Of a stretch of 12,957 nucleotides of DNA, positions 728-11,100 are shown one piece after another. Source of the DNA: Candidatus Pacearchaeota archaeon (GTDB lineage Archaea > Nanobdellota > Nanobdellia > Pacearchaeales > GW2011-AR1); contig JAGVWT010000009.1 of NCBI GenBank assembly GCA_018304175.1, positions 1 to 12,957 of the forward strand. Reading direction: 5' to 3'. The notes beneath the pieces were generated by a model. That model did not search any database. It was not told the origin of the DNA and saw only the letters and a list, made by a program, of their open reading frames with translations. The translations under genes and the position numbers were made by a program. Each line of letters opens with the position of its first letter. The first letter of the stretch is position 1.

Positions 728-1006
728 ATGGGAAACGAGGTAGGACAAGGACATAGAACTGACAGAGATGGGAAAAAATGGGGTAATACCCGTAAGGTCT
801 CCCGTGATGGGACAATTTCTGTTCCATCTCCATCAGAACACAAGGGAAAATCATTTGAGGGAGTTGAGACGAAGAATGCCCTTGCATTTTCAGTTTCTGG
901 AGCGCTTGTTACTGGGGAAGGATATAGACAAGGTTGGGAAGATATCAAAAATTTGGCGGAAATGAAACTAAAAGAAATGCCTGAACCTAAGAAATCTTCT
1001 TCTTAA
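728..1006 (+). CDS. Hypothetical 92 aa protein, possible AbrB/SpoVT-like swapped-hairpin regulator
   Basis: ORF divergent from the RHH operon and convergent with, and overlapping, the integrase end. RKVSRDGTISVP resembles the AbrB-type RKV..G.I.IP motif, but only weakly. Confidence 0.45.
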   Translation: MGNEVGQGHRTDRDGKKWGNTRKVSRDGTISVPSPSEHKGKSFEGVETKNALAFSVSGALVTGEGYRQGWEDIKNLAEMKLKEMPEPKKSSS

Positions 1007-2124
1007 TCAAGTTCAAAATCTCTTTATCTTTTAGTAGCTTATTCATAATCTCGTCGGCTTGACTTCTTTTCAAATCGTTTTCAATTAACATTTCAGACTC
1101 TTTTTTATCTAAAGGAAACCCACAAATTTTACAAAACCTATTTGTTGCTTCATTAGTAGTTTTACATTTCAGGCATTTTTTAGGCTTCATTAAAGGCTCT
1201 TTCTTTTCTTTCTCTACCCTAATCCCATTCATTTCCAAGATAGTTTCGTCTGTTTCCTTTCCAGACATATGGATATAGATTCCAGCCATCTTACTTGATT
1301 GTGTCCATCCAAGATAATGTTTAAGAGCTGAATCACTCATCTTATTAGCTAAAAGTGTCGCTCTAGAATGTCTTAACAAGTGCAGATAAATTCTTTTTTT
1401 AATTTCCGCTCTTTTACTTGCAGTTTTTAATATTGACATAATCCTTGCATAGCTAATGGTTTTCGTGTTTTGTCCGCACCAAAGAAAAGCTTCAGAATCT
1501 TCATTAAAAGGATGTTGGTTAATCCATTCTTGTAAATAAGGGGCAGAGTTAATAACAAGAATTTTTCTCATTCCAGTTTTACCATTAACAACAAGCCTTG
1601 CTCCATACTCTTCAAAAGAAATATGTTTAATTTTCATAGTGCCGATTTCAGAAACTCTACATCCAGATTCCGCAAGTGTTGAAATTAAAGCTTTATCTCT
1701 TATGGTTTTGCAGTGTTGAATAATTCTGATTATCTCTTTTTCTGTTAATAATTCTTCAGGGAGTTTCTTATGATTGTTGGGGATGTTAATAGAAATCCAT
1801 TCAACTTCAGAGGGATAAGTTCCTTTTTCTTAACATAATCTTAAAAGTTTTTTTTGTTTCTTCAGATAAATCTGTTTGGTTAAGCTTACCAATAATAGCC
1901 CTTATATCTTGCTCTGTGGCTTCAGAGAAAGGTTTAGAGAGCATTTTAGAGAACTTCATAACATCCCCTAAATATCTCTCAATTTTCGCTATTCCTATAC
2001 CTTCGCTTAATAAATAGTCTTTAAAGTTTAGAATTGTCTTTTTATTGTCGTCGGTAATTTCTTTAGAGTCCTTAATTCTTTGTAAGCTTCTTTCAAATCT
2101 TTGTTTGTAGTTGTGTATATCCAT
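987..2124 (-). pseudogene. Tyrosine recombinase/integrase with C-terminal zinc ribbon, broken by a +1 frameshift near 1824
   Basis: 2124-1825 encodes the N-terminal SAM-like domain (MDIHNYKQRFERSL...KIMLRK). A second frame, open from 1829 to 987, reads KGTYPSEVEWISINIPNNHKKLPEELLTE...ESGCRVSEI...GKTG...HLLRHSRAT...LGW...IYIH...CLKC...CKIC. All catalytic residues (R, K, HxxR, W, Y) are present. The first ATG in that frame (1637) lies after the catalytic Arg. Confidence 0.85.
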
Positions 2125-3185: not shown

Positions 3186-6100
3186 TTAAGAATTCTTTGC
3201 TTTTACCTCAATAACCTTCTTTTCTTTTTCACTTTTCACTAATCTTCCAGTAACTTCAACAAATAAACCAGGCAATCCTGTTCCTACGGGAACTGGCTGA
3301 TTCAATATAATATTTTCTATAACACTTGTTAAGTCATCTTTGCTTCCTTTTATCGTCGCATTCACGAACTGGTTTATTGGGGTCTCAAAAGTTGCTCTTG
3401 CAAGTATTGAAGATTTCTGCGCGATTATTCCCATTCTGGTAATTCCCTTTATAATCCCTATAACTGTCATAGCGTCCGCAACCAACTCTAAATGTCTCCT
3501 GTTAATGTCAAGTCCCTGCGTATTCAAAACGCCTTGAATTTCATTGATTATTAACTGCCTCGCGGCTTCTATACCAAGAACACTAGCAACTTCATACAAA
3601 TCATTTGAAAGAGTTTTATCAGCGTCGACTTCTTTCATTTCAAATATTTTTTCCATGTTTGTTCCAAGAGTTATAACAACATAATTGCTTCCCTCTTTCA
3701 CAACCATAACTTGCTTTATTCCCTTAACTCCTGAAATTAATGAGGCTTTGATTTTTTCCTTCAGCTTGTATATCTCCTTGAATGAATATTCTCCCGCATT
3801 CACAATTATAGAATTGTCCTTTTCTCTTGCCTTGTAACCCAAATCCTTCAATCTATCAACAATTGTTTTAACAGAAGAGTGCGTCTGCTTCAATCCTTCC
3901 TTATCAATTTTTATTTCAATGCTTTTATCGGTAAAGCTGATGATTATCTCATCAGCGATTTCTTCAACAGTGATTTCTTTTATTTTCTCTGCAAACATTT
4001 TAGCATTTTTTTCATTGTTGTAATCTTTTGAAAGGTGGATTTCCATTTTCGGAGAAGAAGGTTTTTTTCTTGCGTCAAAAATTTCAATTAATTTAGGCAG
4101 TCCTGTTGTAATCTGCATTTCCTGAACTCCTGCGAAGTGGAATACATTCAATGCCATTTGTGTTGATGGCTCACCAAATGATTGTGCAGTTATGATTCCT
4201 ATTGCCTCGCCAGGATCCATTTTTCCGCCGGTGTGAAGTTTTGATATATCCACATCATCATAACCATATTTGAATTGTATTATATTATTATTACTATCTC
4301 TTATAGTACTGTCATATTCTTTTCTCAAATCCTGAATTGCATTTGCAAGTCTTCTATACAAATAACCTGACTTTGGAGTTCTCAATGCAGTATCCATCAA
4401 AGAATCACGTCCTGTTACAGCTCCGAAGAAAAATTCATCAGGCCTTAACCCTTTCATGAAAGAACTCTTGATAAATCCGCGAGATTCAGGAGAAAGTTCA
4501 TTCCTCTTAAAGAAAGGAAGTGTTCTTTTATTGTATCCAATATCAATTCTTCTCCCTAAAAGTGCCTGCTGTCCGACGCTGCACGCTATCTGTGTAATAT
4601 TCAAGATATTTCCCCCTCCTCCAGAAACAATCATGTGATTAACTGGATTATTTGCAGGAAATTCTTTTTTCGCAATTTCTCCGATTTTTGTTCTTACCTC
4701 GTTCAAAACCTGAAGAATTTTTATCTCCCTCGTATCTTCTTTTGATTTCCCGGGAATTGTTTCAAGCCTTCCTTCTTCGTAATCTTTAATTAATTCTTCT
4801 GTCTTTTTCTCTGCCTTTTTTATAACTTCATCACTTTCATTTATCGCTTTCTCATTCAAATTCAAATCTTCAATTGAAATAGTGATTCCATTATTGCTCA
4901 AATATTTCACACCGAGATTGAATGAGTTTTTTATCATGTTAAATGCTTCATCTCTTCCATGTTCTTTGTCAACTTCCATGATTAACTCTCCGTCTTCCTC
5001 TCCAAAAAGGGTTTTGTCTATCTTACCATTTAAGATTTTTCCATCTTTGATTTTCACAGAAGAGTTTGTAAAATCCACTTTTGGAATTATTTCTGAAATT
5101 AATTCTATTCCTGTAATATTTTTCTTTTTTATTTCCTTGTTGATTCCTGACATAAAAAGAAGCTGGTTTGCCTCATCAGCAGATAACTCTGCCTTTCCAA
5201 GGAGGTAATTTCCTGTCAAAGCATCTTCATCAAGTCCAAAAAGGTTAGAATTATTTTTTGGAGAAATTAAATTATTTTTTACATTGAGAATTGTTCTTGC
5301 CTCTGAACGTGCTTCCTCTGTTTGTGGCGAGTGAATATTCATTTCGTCTCCGTCAAAGTCTGCATTGTAAGGGAAAGTCACCGCTGGGTGAACTCTAAAT
5401 GTTTTTCCAGGCAAAACCCTGACAAAATGCGCCATCAAACTTCCTTTGTGTAGTGAAGGATGACGATTGAACAAAACAACATCCCCGTCGACAAGATGCC
5501 TCTCAACTTTATAACCCGGAATAAGTTCATTCATTATTTCTTCTTTTAATTCAGGAGTAATCTTCTTTCTTTTACCATCAGGCCTTATGACATAATTTGC
5601 TCCAGGATATTCCTCACCACATTCAATAAGTTTCTTCATACTATCTAAATTCATGTCGTTAACTGTCTCAGCGACGGTGATTATTCGCGCGATTTCGTAA
5701 GGAACACCAACTTCATTAAGTTCTATAGAAGGGTCAGGAGAAACAACAGTTCTTGCAGAGTAGTTTACTCTTTTTCCCGCTAAGTTTTTACGGATTCTTC
5801 CCTCTTTTCCTTTTATTCTTTCTGTGATTGTTTTCAACGGTTGTCCACTTCTATGGCGTGCAGGAGGTATTCTTGTAACGCTGTTATCGAAAAAAGTTGT
5901 TATGTGATATTGCAATAAATCCCACAAATCTATAATAATAACTTCTGCTGCTCCGGCATTCAAATTTTCCCAAAGTCTTTGATTTGCCCTGATTATATCT
6001 GAAAGTTTATGTGTTAAATCGTCTTCGCTTCTTTCTCCTGTTTCAAGAATAATACTCGGTCTTACTGTTACAGGAGGAACCAAAAGCGAAGTGAGAACTC

Positions 6101-6665
6101 CCCATTCAGGTCTTGAAGTATGTGGATTCACCCCTACTTTAGCCAATTCTTCATCAGGAATTTTAACAAGTATCTCTCTTATTTCAATCGGAAAAATTCT
6201 TTTCTTTCCGATGTAAAAATTAGTTGGCTTGTCTAACTTAACTTTTTCATTCGCTGTTACGCAATGAGGACATTTTTTTGCATCTTTCGCTTTTTTCGCT
6301 CTTTGACTCGGAGCATATTTTTTCAAATCGTTTTCAGAAACCATTAACTTTCCACATTCTTTGCAAAAACATCTCAAACCCATCTCAACTAATGGAATAT
6401 ATTTCAAATGCATAACAGGTCTTGCAAGGTCAATTCTTCCAGAATGTCCTAAGCATTCTTTCAATCGTCCTCCACATGTTCTGCATCTTACTCCAGGATC
6501 AATTGCACCAAGTCTCAAGTCCATCAAACCACCATCGACAGGATAACCATCAATATCATAAAGTTCAGGTGTGACTATTTTCGCGACGGAAAGTTTTTTG
6601 ATTTGCTCTGGGCTAAACAACGCGAATCCAATTTCAGAGATTTTTTTTCTTATTATTTTTTGCAT
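3186..6665 (-). CDS. rpoA: DNA-directed RNA polymerase subunit Rpo1, A' and A'' fused in one ORF
   Basis: Zn motifs CRTC...CLGH and CKEC...CPHC, catalytic NADFDGD (5346-5366), bridge helix DTALRTPKSGYLYRRL, and A''-type PGEAIGIITAQSFGEPSTQM and PVPVGTG, all in one 1159 aa frame. Confidence 0.97.
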   Translation of the reverse strand: MQKIIRKKISEIGFALFSPEQIKKLSVAKIVTPELYDIDGYPVDGGLMDLRLGAIDPGVRCRTCGGRLKECLGHSGRIDLARPVMHLKYIPLVEMGLRCFCKECGKLMVSENDLKKYAPSQRAKKAKDAKKCPHCVTANEKVKLDKPTNFYIGKKRIFPIEIREILVKIPDEELAKVGVNPHTSRPEWGVLTSLLVPPVTVRPSIILETGERSEDDLTHKLSDIIRANQRLWENLNAGAAEVIIIDLWDLLQYHITTFFDNSVTRIPPARHRSGQPLKTITERIKGKEGRIRKNLAGKRVNYSARTVVSPDPSIELNEVGVPYEIARIITVAETVNDMNLDSMKKLIECGEEYPGANYVIRPDGKRKKITPELKEEIMNELIPGYKVERHLVDGDVVLFNRHPSLHKGSLMAHFVRVLPGKTFRVHPAVTFPYNADFDGDEMNIHSPQTEEARSEARTILNVKNNLISPKNNSNLFGLDEDALTGNYLLGKAELSADEANQLLFMSGINKEIKKKNITGIELISEIIPKVDFTNSSVKIKDGKILNGKIDKTLFGEEDGELIMEVDKEHGRDEAFNMIKNSFNLGVKYLSNNGITISIEDLNLNEKAINESDEVIKKAEKKTEELIKDYEEGRLETIPGKSKEDTREIKILQVLNEVRTKIGEIAKKEFPANNPVNHMIVSGGGGNILNITQIACSVGQQALLGRRIDIGYNKRTLPFFKRNELSPESRGFIKSSFMKGLRPDEFFFGAVTGRDSLMDTALRTPKSGYLYRRLANAIQDLRKEYDSTIRDSNNNIIQFKYGYDDVDISKLHTGGKMDPGEAIGIITAQSFGEPSTQMALNVFHFAGVQEMQITTGLPKLIEIFDARKKPSSPKMEIHLSKDYNNEKNAKMFAEKIKEITVEEIADEIIISFTDKSIEIKIDKEGLKQTHSSVKTIVDRLKDLGYKAREKDNSIIVNAGEYSFKEIYKLKEKIKASLISGVKGIKQVMVVKEGSNYVVITLGTNMEKIFEMKEVDADKTLSNDLYEVASVLGIEAARQLIINEIQGVLNTQGLDINRRHLELVADAMTVIGIIKGITRMGIIAQKSSILARATFETPINQFVNATIKGSKDDLTSVIENIILNQPVPVGTGLPGLFVEVTGRLVKSEKEKKVIEVKAKNS

Positions 6666-6666
6666 T

Positions 6667-7071
6667 TTATCTTGATTGATACAACAACCTCCCTTCTTTC
6701 ATATCTTTCCCAAAATCTCCTCTCCCATAAGGATTATTACCTAAACAAAGTTTAACATCATCTTCAGTTAATACAAAAAAACTGAATCTATCAGAAAACT
6801 TTCCATTTATTAACCTTCTAATTTCCATAGTTATTTTTCGTGCCCGTTTATCTTGTACAATACAATCAGGGGTGTCTCTCTGATACTCTAAAGAGAGTAC
6901 AGAATATCCACTAACTCCTACTTCTAACAAAACATCAATATCTGATTTTTCAGGATCCCAATTTTTATTATTATAACTTCCAAAAACTCTTATCTCTGAT
7001 AATATAGGAACTTCTGTTTTGGCAATTTCAACCAGTTTCTCAAGTTCTTGCTCAACAATTTGTCTTTCCAT
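6667..7071 (-). CDS. Pol-beta superfamily minimal nucleotidyltransferase (MNT-like), orphan
   Basis: 134 aa with VFGSY...SDIDVLL (the GS plus DxD signature) and a C-terminal EGRLLY typical of MNT domains. It has 1 nt gaps to rpoB and rpoA. Confidence 0.8.
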   Translation of the reverse strand: MERQIVEQELEKLVEIAKTEVPILSEIRVFGSYNNKNWDPEKSDIDVLLEVGVSGYSVLSLEYQRDTPDCIVQDKRARKITMEIRRLINGKFSDRFSFFVLTEDDVKLCLGNNPYGRGDFGKDMKEGRLLYQSR

Positions 7072-7072
7072 T

Positions 7073-10000
7073 TTACTCGTATTTGTTTTTTAATTTCATT
7101 TTTGTGTGAATGTGCAATCCTTGTAATTCTTCCAAAAGAAGTTTGAACACATATGAAATCTCAACTGGCTCTGTGTCTTCGCTGCTACAAATTGGACAAT
7201 AAATTTTGTTTCTTATATTGTCTTCAACTGCGATGCTTCCACAATGCGTGCAAATGTAAAGAACAACTTTGTCTGAATCATAACGTTCTTTCAAAAGCAA
7301 TGAAGCTCCGTGAGCAACCAACGCTTGCTGTTCCATTTCTCCTAATCTTAAAGCTCCACCTCTCGACCTTCCTTCAATCGGCTGTCTTGTAAGCAAAGCA
7401 ATTTTTCCAGAAGCTCTTGCATGAATTTTATTTGCAACCATATATTTCAATTTCAAGTAATAAAGATTTCCAATAAAAATTTTTGTAGCCATTCTCTTAC
7501 CAGTTATAGGATTGTACATTGTTTCTTTTCCGTCGTAACTGAACCCAAGATTTTCCAGGCTTTCCTCAAGGGAGTTTTTTTCCTCTCCTGAAAATGGAGT
7601 TCCGTCAATTACTTCTCCTCTCAAACATCCAACTTTTCCTGCGAGCATTTCAAGCAAGTATCCCATAGTCATTCTGCTCGGCAAACCATGAGGATTAAAA
7701 ATCACATCTGGCTTAATTCCCTTTGAAGTGAATGGAACATCTTCTTCATTTATTATCGCTCCGATAACTCCCTTTTGTCCATGAGATGTCGCAAATTTGT
7801 CGCCGACTTCAGGAATTCTTATGTCTCTCGTTCTTACCTGAACAATTTTGTTTCCTTCAGAATCCCTTGTAATGAAAACAGCGTCGACAGTTCCTTTTTC
7901 TTCCTGTCGCATCGTGATGCTCGATTCTTTTTGTGTCTTAACTGAAATCTCCCTCGCTTCTGACAGGAATTTTGGTGGAGATATCTTCCCAATTAAAACT
8001 TCCCCTTCATTGACTTCTGCTTCTGGATAAATAATTCCATCATCTTCTAAAAATTTATAACTTGCCTCAGTTCTGTATCCAGAAGTTCCCTTCTCAGGCA
8101 CAATTATTTCATCTCTCAGTCCTCCTGCATAATTTATTTCTACAGCACTATAAGGTCTAAAGTAAAAACTTCTTCCAACTCCTCTATCAAAACTTCCTTT
8201 GTTGAAAACCAAAGCGTCTTTCATGTTGTAACCTTCATAAGTCATGACTGCAACAACCATATTTTGTCCTGCAGGATACATGTTTAAAGTATCATAAACA
8301 AAACTTCTGACTATTGGTTTTTGAGGATATGCTAAAACACTGACATCAGTATCCAATCTGCAGAGATAATTCGCAGAATATAAACCTAATGCCTGTTTTT
8401 GAGTTTTACTACCACGATTCAATCTCGAGCTCTGGTCATGGTTTCCATAAGGAACTAATGAAGTAACAACTCCTAACAAATCCATTGTATCAATTTCAAG
8501 ATGTGTATGTTCGGGAGTGAGTTCGTTTTCATACAAAGCGACAAAAGAATTTTCTTCTTCAGAAGTATCTAAATATTCTATGACTTTTTCCTTTATCAAA
8601 TCCTCCCACTTTATTTCGTTCTGCCTGAGTTTCATTAAATGTTCTTGAGTTAATCTTGGAACCCCATTATCAACTATAACCAAAGGCCTCAATGCCCTTC
8701 CGGACTCTGTTGAGATAATAACATTTCCAAAATCAAAATTGTTTCTTATATTAACCTCTCCTGGAATTTCCTGTTTTCTTCTCCTTTCTCTTATCTTTCC
8801 TACAAAATCTTTTGGAGATTGAACAATTCCTATAAATTTCCCGTCGAGAAAAACATCTGTTCCTGTTGCATCTTCCTGGCTTAAACCTTCTTGCACAAGA
8901 TCTTTGATGAATTTTTGCACGTCAAAGTTTATTCTCGTTGATACTCTACATAAAATTGAAAGGTTTTTTCTCAAACCGATTTCTGTTCCTTCAGGGGTTT
9001 CTATAGGACAGAGTTTTCCGTAGTGAGTTGGATGCAACGTACGCGCCATGAAATTTTCCTGCTCACTTGGAAGCATTGAAGAAACACGTTGCAACTGTGA
9101 AATCGTGGCCAGATAATTTGTCTTGTCCATATTCTGCGTAACCCCGCTCCTGTCGCCAGTCCAACTTCCTGTTGCAATCGCAGATTCAACTCTGTGTGAA
9201 AACAAAGTAGATTTCGCAATTGTCTTTATTGAAAAAAGTCTTTTCCTCTTCACCGATTTCTGCAAAGAGTATTGTATGTCTCTGATAAGAATTCCTAAAT
9301 TTGCCCTGAAAAGATTTGCCATCAAATCTCCGGAAAGCCTGATTCTTTTGTTTGAATAATGGTCTTTATCAGTTTTCAAATCAGGATTTTCTTTAGCGAT
9401 TAAAAATTGTTTTATCATCTTGCACAAAGTTATGGCTTTTTTCATTCTTTCTTCTTTCGTTTGTCCAATGTTTGGGAGAAGATAAGAATCAATTCTTTGC
9501 TTTACTCTGTCAAGAATTTCTTTTTTTGTTCCCTGTAATGCAGAATCTTCTGCAATTTTCAGCATCGCTTCTTCAGGAGTAGACAAATTCACAAACTCGT
9601 ACAAGTTCACAATCAAACTGTCTGTTTCTTTCCCGACGTATTTTGCAATGTCAGATTCTCTTGTCATTCCCAAAACCTTTAAAATTATAACTGCGGGAAT
9701 ATTTCTGAATCTGCTGAATGAAACTTCAAAAATTCCTTCTTTATTCTCAGAAATGACGACTGGAATCCTATAAGTCCCGCGCGAAGAAAACATTCTTAGT
9801 ATTAGATTTTTTTTGCTGTCTTTTTCAATGAAAGGCTGATTTTCAGCCAAGTCTTCAGACATTATCATAACTCTCTCATTTCCGTTGATCATAAAATAGC
9901 CACCTGTGTCTAATGGGTCGTTGTAATTTTTTATCAAGTCTTCTTTTGATAGTCCATAAGTGTTACAAGCCTTGCTCTTTACCATGATTGGAATTCTTCC

Positions 10001-10333
10001 TATTTCAACATTTTCAGAATCAATTTGTCCTTCTTTTTTTATTGTTATTTCAAGGGTTATAGGGGAAGAATAAGTCAAATTCCTAAGGCGGGCTTCATAA
10101 GGCATGACTAATGAGCTACTTCCGTCAGATTCAATAATTTGAGGCTTTCCTACTTTTATTTTTCCAAGATTTATCTCAAAATCTTCTTTTGCAATGTTGT
10201 CATTAACTTCATTGACTATTTCCTGCATCCTGTGCTCAATAAAATCATTAAACGAAATTATGTTTGAACTAACAAGTGAATGGTCTTCCAGGTATTTCTT
10301 CACAACAATATGGTCATTTTTTTCTTTTTTCAT
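7073..10333 (-). CDS. rpoB: DNA-directed RNA polymerase subunit Rpo2 (unsplit B''+B')
   Basis: Motifs LCPIETPEGTEIGLRKNL, GYNMKDA, GDKFATSHGQKG, HARASG...TRQPIEGRSRGGALRLGEME and a C-terminal Zn ribbon. The start is placed at 10333 (MKKEK), preceded by GGAG, rather than at 10357. Confidence 0.97.
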   Translation of the reverse strand: MKKEKNDHIVVKKYLEDHSLVSSNIISFNDFIEHRMQEIVNEVNDNIAKEDFEINLGKIKVGKPQIIESDGSSSLVMPYEARLRNLTYSSPITLEITIKKEGQIDSENVEIGRIPIMVKSKACNTYGLSKEDLIKNYNDPLDTGGYFMINGNERVMIMSEDLAENQPFIEKDSKKNLILRMFSSRGTYRIPVVISENKEGIFEVSFSRFRNIPAVIILKVLGMTRESDIAKYVGKETDSLIVNLYEFVNLSTPEEAMLKIAEDSALQGTKKEILDRVKQRIDSYLLPNIGQTKEERMKKAITLCKMIKQFLIAKENPDLKTDKDHYSNKRIRLSGDLMANLFRANLGILIRDIQYSLQKSVKRKRLFSIKTIAKSTLFSHRVESAIATGSWTGDRSGVTQNMDKTNYLATISQLQRVSSMLPSEQENFMARTLHPTHYGKLCPIETPEGTEIGLRKNLSILCRVSTRINFDVQKFIKDLVQEGLSQEDATGTDVFLDGKFIGIVQSPKDFVGKIRERRRKQEIPGEVNIRNNFDFGNVIISTESGRALRPLVIVDNGVPRLTQEHLMKLRQNEIKWEDLIKEKVIEYLDTSEEENSFVALYENELTPEHTHLEIDTMDLLGVVTSLVPYGNHDQSSRLNRGSKTQKQALGLYSANYLCRLDTDVSVLAYPQKPIVRSFVYDTLNMYPAGQNMVVAVMTYEGYNMKDALVFNKGSFDRGVGRSFYFRPYSAVEINYAGGLRDEIIVPEKGTSGYRTEASYKFLEDDGIIYPEAEVNEGEVLIGKISPPKFLSEAREISVKTQKESSITMRQEEKGTVDAVFITRDSEGNKIVQVRTRDIRIPEVGDKFATSHGQKGVIGAIINEEDVPFTSKGIKPDVIFNPHGLPSRMTMGYLLEMLAGKVGCLRGEVIDGTPFSGEEKNSLEESLENLGFSYDGKETMYNPITGKRMATKIFIGNLYYLKLKYMVANKIHARASGKIALLTRQPIEGRSRGGALRLGEMEQQALVAHGASLLLKERYDSDKVVLYICTHCGSIAVEDNIRNKIYCPICSSEDTEPVEISYVFKLLLEELQGLHIHTKMKLKNKYE

Positions 10334-10411
10334 TTTGATTCTCCAAAATGGAAACATGAAAATCTTTGATTTTCTTTCTTCATTTCAAAATATATCCAAC
10401 AAATTTTTTAA

Positions 10412-10688: not shown

Positions 10689-10719
10689 GAAAAAAGTTTT
10701 AGTTGGGATTCTTAAAAAA

Positions 10720-10729
10720 TGGCTCCGAT
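10720..10729 (-). repeat. Downstream near-copy of the tRNA-Lys 3' end (ATCGGAGCCA versus ATCGGGGCCA)
   Basis: 9/10 identity with 10853-10862, and both copies continue into TTT. This copy is followed by a T6 run (10714-10719). Confidence 0.5.
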
Positions 10730-10852
10730 TACTCGCGACCCCGCTCGGATTTTTTATTTTTCGTTTCACGATTAATTTTCGCGAAATCGCTCGGGATTTG
10801 ATACCGAGGTTCAAATCAACATTTGTAAATTCTGTTTAACAACAGCATGAAA

Positions 10853-10967
10853 TGGCCCCGATGGGATTTGAACCCACGACACCTGGATTGCTTTGCGAGT
10901 TCGCGAAGCACGCGAAACTTGTTTCAGCGTAAAAGTCCAGTGCTCTACCAGGCTGAGCTACGGAGCC
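10853..10967 (-). tRNA. tRNA-Lys (UUU) with a 41 nt canonical 37/38 intron (10889-10929)
   Basis: Acceptor GGCTCCG/CGGGGCC plus A73, D-arm GCTC/GAGC, anticodon arm CTGGA-CT-TTT-A^A-TCCAG, T-arm GTGGG-TTCAAAT-CCCAT. The BHB is the helix CTTT/AAAG with bulges TA^C and CA^A. Confidence 0.93.
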
Positions 10968-11056
10968 TTTTCTGTTTTTGGCGACGTAGCGGACCGAATC
11001 GGTTTTGACGATAGGGGTTATTGTAAGGGGATATGCCCCTCATGAGCTACGGAGCC
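10954..11056 (-). repeat. 14 bp exact direct repeat of tRNA-Lys nt 1-14 (10954-10967 and 11043-11056) enclosing a 75 bp structured spacer
   Basis: TGAGCTACGGAGCC occurs at both positions on the + strand. The spacer has the hairpins AGGGG-CATAT-CCCCT and ACCGA-T-TCGGT. Confidence 0.9.
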
Positions 11057-11079
11057 TCTAGCATACTTTTAATTTGTGC

Positions 11080-11100
11080 AGATAATTTTTAAACTTATCT
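11080..11100. promoter_or_regulatory. Putative bidirectional TATA element (tRNA-Lys / MFS) inside a 6 bp inverted repeat
   Basis: AGATAA-TTTTTAAAC-TTATCT. The TATA is about 30 nt from the upstream tRNA-Lys copy (11056) and about 22-27 nt from the MFS ATG (11115). Confidence 0.5.

Follow-up and report, generated by a model that had tools for sequence, protein, structure and literature searches.

A tRNA-Lys(UUU) gene of a DPANN archaeon with probable small non-coding insertion modules at both ends

Introduction

It is an old question how archaeal tRNA genes gain introns, and how split and permuted genes arise. The tRNA-Lys(UUU) locus described here raises a narrower one: an intron-containing tRNA gene stands between second copies of both of its own ends, and it is asked which copies are ancestral, which copy is the working one and what kind of DNA separates them. 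The locus is located in the window, meaning the whole stretch of 12,957 nt that was analyzed, which represents contig 1 of a 544-kb, 88%-complete DPANN assembly; the records of relatives are labelled Pacearchaeota, Woesearchaeota or Nanoarchaeota. For the nested layout, a first-pass annotation had offered a processing switch, a tRNA-mimic wrapper or layered integration scars at both ends. The repeats fall below the length of assembly k-mers, and many independent assemblies show the same layout; an assembly artefact was rejected on these grounds. No published description of small modules that duplicate tRNA ends was found in a literature search.

Architecture of the tRNA-Lys(UUU) locus

All parts of the nested layout lie on the minus strand, and the coordinates assigned to them in the first-pass annotation all hold (Table 1). 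The same applies to the complementarity claimed for the antisense piece. Neither outer copy is a product of chance: the 5′ copy, taken as a 15-mer, occurs twice in the window and not at all in 200 shuffles, and two matches of the longer 3′ copy ATCGGAGCCATTT (10729-10717), which is identical to the real end at 12 of 13 positions, were likewise absent from all 200 shuffled windows. The only mismatch of the outer 3′ copy is a G to A change at 10724, where the paralogue and all orthologues keep G. This change turns U4·G69 into a Watson-Crick pair, and the outer 5′ copy hence pairs better with the outer 3′ copy than with the real 3′ strand, as had been noticed before; one transition within a relic is all that perfects this outer helix. 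The 10-mer at 10720 is no chance match either, but it is not conserved among orthologues and is common only to the paralogous tRNA-Lys(CUU) locus.

Table 1 Features of the nested tRNA-Lys(UUU) locus and of the second module-bearing tRNA gene in the window.
Feature	Position	Strand	Description
TATA-type promoter box TTTAAAAA	11093-11086	minus	starts 37 nt ahead of the outer 5′ copy
Outer 5′ relic GGCTCCGTAGCTCA	11056-11043	minus	exact copy of tRNA nt 1-14; 15-mer with the preceding A at 11057-11043
5′ module core, type A	11042-10991	minus	52 nt; hairpin TGAGGGG-CATAT-CCCCTTA, motif CCCCTTACAATAACCCC (11030-11014) and a second small hairpin
Antisense piece GCTACGTCGCC	10990-10980	minus	9 of 11 positions complementary to tRNA nt 1-11
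A-rich linker AAAAACAGAAAA	10979-10968	minus	12 nt; precedes the first base of the tRNA; unpaired in the predicted leader fold
tRNA-Lys(UUU) gene	10967-10853	minus	exon 1 10967-10930, intron 10929-10889, exon 2 10888-10853; without encoded CCA
3′ module (trailer)	10852-10730	minus	123 nt; GATTTGAACC (10817-10808) antisense to the T-loop, decayed T-loop copy TATCAAATCCCGAGCG and internal direct repeat
Outer 3′ relic ATCGGAGCCA	10729-10720	minus	tRNA nt 64-73 with G69 changed to A; followed by T6 at 10719-10714
rpoH promoter region	10685-10655	minus	homologous to the DNA directly after the module-free tRNA-Lys of G001
tRNA-Glu(UUC) gene	2185-2257	minus	second module-bearing tRNA gene in the window
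tRNA-Glu(UUC) module	2258-2369	minus	

The inner gene scores 58.2 bits against the Rfam model RF00005 (threshold 29 bits) over model positions 1–71, and on its own it is predicted to fold as a full cloverleaf. Its intron is located at the canonical position 37/38 and is framed by a BHB motif with a central helix of 4 bp, an outer helix of 5 bp and an inner helix of 2 bp. Apart from this intron the gene is contiguous, and it thus belongs to neither the split nor the permuted tRNA genes. ARAGORN in default mode did not call it, and an Rfam search of the locus returned no known RNA family besides tRNA.

The module between the outer and the inner 5′ end has a length of 75 nt, that between the two 3′ ends of 123 nt; no ORF lies between the copies. 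The 5′ core starts with TGAGGGG, and the linker ends with AACAGAAAA, directly followed by tRNA nt 1. Within the trailer, the internal direct repeat comprises 21 nt (10799-10779 and 10753-10733), and the layered make-up of this segment suggests that more than one event took place at the 3′ end. Homology of the trailer with the gene's own intron was considered in either orientation and dropped, the scores of 19–21 being within the shuffle range.

Recurrence of the modules in the genome

Within the same genome, 15 of the 37 tRNA genes (~40%) have their own 5′ end duplicated upstream, their own 3′ end duplicated downstream, or both. The gene's own first 12 nt are copied within 250 nt upstream in 10 of the 37, and its own last 11 nt are copied downstream in 8, or 9 when tRNA-Lys(UUU) is counted at 10 nt. 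As controls, the 5′ end of another tRNA was found upstream in 1 of 1208 cases and the 3′ end of another tRNA downstream in 5 of 1282, and own-end copies on the wrong side were absent from all 37 genes. Hence, small end-duplicating modules are a recurrent trait of this genome and not a one-off. Upstream, the order is relic, hairpin core, antisense piece, linker and gene. Downstream it is mirrored, with the gene being followed by a short linker, then a piece complementary to the T-loop, a reverse-complemented core of the same kind, the relic and a T-run. The modules are as common at 5′ as at 3′ ends. Both occur together at four of the 37 tRNAs (p = 0.18), two of these four being paralogues.

The paralogues are the two tRNA-Lys genes; tRNA-Lys(CUU) on contig 14 shows the same nested layout. 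Between the two loci, the relic, the antisense piece with its linker, the exons, the trailer and the outer 3′ copy are 88–100% identical, whereas the 5′ core and the intron are unrelated. Taken together as frame, exons and trailer, the identity is 92–100%, with 96% for the trailer. As core and intron differ within an otherwise stable frame, cores and introns alike appear to be exchangeable cassettes. The trailer was also considered as a member of a repeat family, which was rejected as it has a clear match only at the tRNA-Lys(CUU) paralogue.

The second module-bearing gene of the window, tRNA-Glu(UUC), follows the upstream order. Its module begins with a copy of nt 1–15 (2369-2355) and continues with a type C core, GGCGATTTC...GAAATCGC, and the antisense piece AACTTTTGGAGC. 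Upstream of tRNA-Glu(CUC) lies a module that is 99% identical to this one (C13:37075-37169).

Distribution of the hairpin core

Over 46 nt, the core upstream of tRNA-Lys(UUU) is 97.8% identical to the core preceding a tRNA-Ile gene on contig 14, and it is related to the cores before two tRNA-Thr genes. Each of these near-identical cores is flanked by the first 14–18 nt of its own tRNA. Altogether, the type A core occurs in 12 copies in the genome. Four of them belong to 5′ modules and four, in reverse complement, to 3′ modules; a further copy makes up the body of the canonical tRNA-Asp intron, another lies within the RNase P RNA, and two are found elsewhere. The 17-mer of the core is also present in other DPANN genomes, where it is found in 5′ modules of Ser, Ile, Met, Thr and Lys genes, in canonical introns of Ile, Cys and Asn genes and beside ORF starts. 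Of 301 genomes sampled across the order, 12 contain the exact core motif, which is a patchy distribution. Direct repeats of 13–26 nt flank the copies at tRNA ends; the intron, RNase P and ORF-adjacent copies are without them, with one non-tRNA copy, L061 (15 nt), as the exception.

Two occurrences outside tRNA genes can be described more closely. In the RNase P RNA gene (G000 contig 17, 7350-7674), which scores 78 bits and thus just below the Rfam threshold of 84 bits, the core (GGGG-loop-CCCC TTACACTAA CCCC TCC) is situated at ~7365-7402, just past the conserved GAGGAAGGTCCGG block; herein it represents either an expansion segment or an unspliced insert. Type C and type A cores are also found reversed against start codons of protein genes (G000 contig 14 at 34082, 70632 and 117938; L085, L087 and L089). 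In this orientation the type A core reads AAGGAGGGG...hairpin...ATG, and it may supply a 5′ untranslated region.

Antisense piece

Across 19 modules, the best complementarity of the upstream sequence to nt 1–11 of the cognate tRNA amounts to 7.5/11 and reaches at least 9 in 32%; for the same modules against non-cognate tRNAs it is 6.0/11, with 1.5% reaching at least 9. Upstream of module-less tRNAs the values are 4.9/11 for both cognate and non-cognate comparisons. As measured by this complementarity, the antisense piece is partly tRNA-specific. It also tracks tRNA nt 7, a change of G7 to A7 being accompanied by a change of GCTAC to GCTAT (L034 and L060). Typically it reads GCTAC-NNN-GCC, which leaves an internal loop across from nt 4–6, and the version of tRNA-Lys, GTCGCC, recurs across several lineages together with different cores. 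The antisense pieces are never perfect (at most 9/11), whereas the outer 5′ copies are perfect in most modules. This combination of perfect relics, tracking and imperfect antisense pieces hints at either selection or a templating mechanism. Among the orthologous modules, the A-rich linkers have lengths of 3–17 nt, and the modules of G007 and L055 are without an antisense piece.

Orthologous loci and the ancestral gene ends

Linkage of tRNA-Lys, rpoH and rpoB extends over the family (G001, G007, G011, G022 and L084). In G001, which belongs to the same genus and whose RpoB is 84% identical over the part covered by the locus, tRNA-Lys(UUU) has neither an intron nor modules, and its sequence differs from the exons of the gene described here at one position only (U/C in the D-loop). 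The locus of L084 (RpoB 75% identical) contains a homologous 5′ module only, the antisense piece of which, GCTACGTGGCC, is homologous to GCTACGTCGCC. Further orthologous loci were provided by 44 metagenome contigs with tRNA-Lys(UUU) upstream of rpoH: a 5′ copy is present in 21 and a 3′ copy in 8, with many unrelated cores among them. Both modules occur together in 3 of 43 metagenome loci tabulated (p = 0.70). As this co-occurrence is not significant, the view that the 5′ and 3′ modules are coupled as one nested device was rejected.

The position of the promoter distinguishes the outer from the inner 5′ end. In the host genome, module-less tRNAs have a TTTAAA or TTTATA box at about −31 to −26, and module-bearing tRNAs have it equally far ahead of the outer copy; the inner start of tRNA-Lys(UUU) has neither box in this position. 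For the metagenome loci, promoters were counted for 43 of the 44 tRNAs, 19 with and 24 without a 5′ copy. A box lies at the proper distance from the outer copy in 14 of the 19 module-bearing loci and from the inner start in 1 of 19, compared with 19 of 24 for the gene in module-less loci. A promoter inside the module was considered as well, since some cores contain a GTTTAAAC-like box 23–37 nt from the inner start; it was rejected, the distance being right in 1 of 19 orthologous loci. Because the promoter lies ahead of it, the outer 5′ copy is read as the original 5′ end. On the other side, the flank after the outer 3′ copy aligns with the flank after the G001 tRNA, including the rpoH promoter (score 35 versus 17.5 ± 2.9 for shuffles), and no alignment with this G001 DNA was obtained for the flank after the inner 3′ end. 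Flank alignment and promoter geometry show that the outer copies are the ancestral ends of the gene.

Decayed outer copies next to an intact inner gene are found at C12:15154, C4:9094, G007, G011 and G002. At C12:15154 the nest is triple, and its middle copy would mispair with C66; the relic of G011 is nearly erased and the 3′ relic of G002 is broken. Wherever the copies differ, it is the outer one that has decayed while the acceptor pairs of the inner one are intact, and by this comparison the inner gene is the working copy. In L137 and L041, the 5′ duplications are plain tandem repeats that comprise 30–40 nt of upstream DNA together with tRNA nt 1–23 and contain no hairpin core; the stranded 5′ ends in this lineage are, hence, not all of one origin.

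Predicted RNA folding and processing

The first-pass annotation had described a spacer with two hairpins, a ~340-nt precursor and several alternative acceptor helices. The hairpins were recovered in the predicted fold: the first 77 nt form a stem that is closed by the relic and the antisense piece and encloses them, with −24.7 kcal/mol and z = −3.4, none of 200 shuffles being as stable. For the growing chain, this leader hairpin is the minimum-energy fold at lengths of 77–125 nt and again at 260 nt, where it stands beside the inner cloverleaf. On its 5′ side, the precursor likely begins at the outer copy, as the promoter box precedes this copy. Alternative helices are indeed predicted for the full 340-nt RNA at equilibrium, in which the outer copies pair with each other (p ~1) and the antisense piece pairs with the inner 5′ strand (p 0.99). 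This leaves p 0.006 for the real acceptor stem, at an energy gap of 3.2 kcal/mol in a calculation that ignores tertiary structure. As equilibrium favours the antisense piece on the inner 5′ strand, the leader could be an obstacle to folding instead of being neutral. For the three remaining double-module tRNAs, concentric outer and inner acceptor stems are predicted (p 0.8–1.0) that never cross-pair. The fold of the trailer is unexceptional (z = −1.4).

RNase P RNA and RNase Z are encoded in the genome. A catalytic-domain search of the 88%-complete genome yielded one match for the splicing endonuclease, in a frame of ~180 aa; the endonuclease types reported to cut non-canonical introns are (alpha-beta)2 and epsilon2 (PMC5829648). 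Scanning all cut pairs for BHB motifs recovered the real intron and nothing that removes the 5′ or the 3′ module. The scan of the 366-nt stretch 11070-10705 returned 14 chance motifs, and such matches are therefore weak. It thereby shows no predicted splicing motif able to remove either module. Most likely, the 5′ module would be made as a self-folding leader of ~89 nt and removed by RNase P, and the trailer, if transcribed at all, would likeliest be removed by RNase Z.

Origin of the nested layout

The locus is probably best explained as a working, intron-containing tRNA-Lys(UUU) gene that has gained length at either end through small non-coding insertion modules. Each module would separate the original gene end from a newly made copy of this end that is joined to the gene body, leaving the original end stranded outside, beside the old promoter or the old terminator. 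A module would be made up of a swappable, intron-like hairpin core facing the relic and of a partly tRNA-specific antisense stretch with linker facing the gene. Transcription would start at or just before the outer 5′ copy. The relic and the antisense piece would then pair once both are made, giving the closed 77-nt leader hairpin, which would be unable to compete with the real 5′ strand. RNase P would subsequently cut at the inner +1, EndA and RNA ligase would take out the canonical intron, and RNase Z would cut after A73, with or without transcription to the outer T6. Cores may move between existing frames, possibly via gene conversion with GTAGCTCA and GCTAC as flanking homology, and modules may be lost precisely via their direct repeats. 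The former would explain young cores in old frames and the latter empty sites. Among the three earlier suggestions, layered integration scars at both ends come closest to this evidence, given outer copies that are ancestral and a trailer that holds an older T-loop relic.

Going further, the modules may form a new class of non-autonomous mobile unit, kin to archaeal tRNA introns, that finds a tRNA end via its antisense stretch and re-creates this end upon insertion, whereby the gene would survive. The hairpin of relic and antisense piece would herein be kept by selection, either to neutralise the leader or as a minihelix-like handle for RNase P or RNase Z. We put this extension forward tentatively, as a possibility that is not our favoured one.

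The remaining suggestions of the first-pass annotation ascribe the nested layout to selection for an RNA device. Its alternative helices would time or gate RNase P and RNase Z, shield the 5′ end or, with an acceptor-like stem and an A-rich tail, mimic a tRNA minihelix. Such a device would account for an antisense piece that is partly tRNA-specific and co-varies with tRNA nt 7, for the conservation of the GTCGCC-type frame of tRNA-Lys over several lineages despite different cores, for outer copies that are mostly perfect, for the concentric folds without cross-pairing of the other three double-module tRNAs (p 0.8–1.0) and for the stability of the leader (z = −3.4). However, the layout is dispensable, as it is absent from the same-genus orthologue, which lacks modules and intron alike, and from about half of the orthologous loci. 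Relics have decayed at several loci, modules without an antisense piece exist (G007 and L055), and the cores are interchangeable and present in unrelated places too. Moreover, the 5′ and 3′ modules are statistically independent, and a purpose-built nested switch is therefore unlikely; neither the dedicated processing switch nor the tRNA-mimic wrapper was sustained, and we regard a selected device as an unlikely origin of the layout.

Two further readings keep the insertion-like appearance of the locus and differ in what was inserted. If the modules were internally deleted, integrase-borne elements of kilobase size, the outer copies would be attL/attR scars. Integration of this kind classically yields partial tRNA copies (PMC9897764; PMC3293823), a 7.7-kb integrase element of G018 at tRNA-Asp has a 16-nt repeat of the tRNA 3′ end at its borders, and an integrase of the same family follows tRNA-Glu in the window. 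At tRNA-Lys, a direct repeat that reaches the gene end is indeed present in one intact and one partial copy, but the 75 and 123 nt between the repeats hold neither a recombinase gene nor element-sized DNA, and the repeat is not carried by the element, as the Lys, Ile and Thr cores are each flanked by the end of their own tRNA. The modules are discrete units of very similar lengths, with near-identical cores at different tRNAs yet tRNA-specific repeats; 5′ ends are affected as often as 3′ ends and in mirror orientation, the junction in G018 stands beside a relic without such a core, and the 88%-complete genome yielded just two tyrosine recombinase genes. We consider this origin quite improbable. 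Alternatively, the outer copies could be the true exons and the modules non-canonical introns, an endonuclease removing the module together with the inner copy. The core is a genuine intron elsewhere (tRNA-Asp in this genome; Ile, Cys and Asn in other DPANN genomes), the tRNA would be restored if each copy were cut behind nt 14, and the palindrome AGCU (nt 9–12) could give a central helix of 4 bp. The flanking helices are missing, though. In the best case, k = 14, the motif amounts to 4/0/1 against 4/5/2 in the real intron and thus to a central helix only, on which grounds BHB introns were rejected, and the 3′ module offers no candidate at all. In addition, the endonuclease looks like a single subunit of ~180 aa, the decayed copies are all outer ones, and the introns called by ARAGORN are all near the canonical position. 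This reading appears very improbable.

Other types of mobile DNA were considered and rejected. For casposon or retroelement insertion, searches of the 88%-complete genome gave no match to Cas1 (PF01867) or reverse transcriptase (PF00078). A transposon or MITE with a fixed target duplication disagrees with the repeats, which have lengths of 13–26 nt and are missing at non-tRNA copies except L061, and no inverted repeat joins the module ends. For recombination at integron or Xer/CTX hairpin sites, reasoning from the sequences, the paired arms (~3 + 6 bp) are too short and the spacer has 3–17 nt.

Comparison with known systems

Integrating archaeal viruses, plasmids and islands leave partial tRNA copies behind. 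Such copies are described for integrations of 9–23 kb (PMC9897764), with PYG1 in Pyrococcus yayanosii as an example, and a tRNA-Thr 5′ fragment with a 1.8-kb recombinase element is described in Caldiarchaeum (PMC3293823). As in the modules, these attL/attR scars leave a truncated copy of the tRNA end outside, the intact gene survives, the relic keeps the original flank, and the repeat extends from inside the tRNA to the gene end. In contrast, the modules have inserts of 75–123 nt that are non-coding and without integrase, as opposed to 1.8–23 kb, and repeats of 13–26 nt as opposed to ~44 nt. They further differ by affecting both gene ends in mirror orientation, by combining one core with tRNA-specific repeats and by containing an antisense copy in the unit.

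The tRNA introns of Thermoproteales resemble the cores in that closely related sequences occur in different tRNAs; the mechanism of their transposition is given as unknown and probably acting at the DNA level, according to the account of Fujishima et al. 2010 in PMC4090602. The cores differ by lying outside the mature tRNA, by having no border BHB, by occurring in both orientations and by being accompanied by a duplicated gene end. In split and permuted tRNA genes (Nanoarchaeum equitans and Cyanidioschyzon merolae; PMC4090602), complementary leader and trailer sequences likewise shape the precursor. The tRNA-Lys gene, however, is whole, its complementary pieces form no splice site, and no joining is needed. 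With MITE-like repeats, the modules share that they are short, structured, non-coding, multicopy and patchy (12 copies of the core; 12 of 301 genomes), but they have no terminal inverted repeats, and their flanking repeats of 13–26 nt are located essentially at tRNA ends (with L061 as the one exception).

Among the locations described here, the intron-like cores are caught as a true intron, a leader module, a reversed trailer module and an insert of the RNase P RNA. Filled and empty orthologous sites that are one genus apart make this a concrete system for testing how such sequences move. If the mobile-unit reading is true, the modules could be raw material for tRNA introns, split genes and permuted genes. 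The locus also illustrates how a cell would tolerate a leader of ~89 nt that begins with a decoy copy of the 5′ strand of the tRNA. In DPANN genomes, such relics can mislead both tRNA annotation and the detection of integration sites.

Neighbouring genes in the window

A tyrosine-integrase gene is located at 987-2124 (minus strand) and begins 60 nt after tRNA-Glu; it is frameshifted into parts of 105 aa and 216 aa, and the far end of its element lies beyond the start of the contig. An intact, 56%-identical integrase heads the 7.7-kb element of G018, the 16-nt bounding repeat of which reads CCGGTTTGGGCGTTCT. An ORF of 134 aa with a nucleotidyltransferase domain (PF01909) is situated at 6667-7071 (minus strand), between rpoB (7073-10357) and a fused rpoA of 1159 aa (3186-6665).
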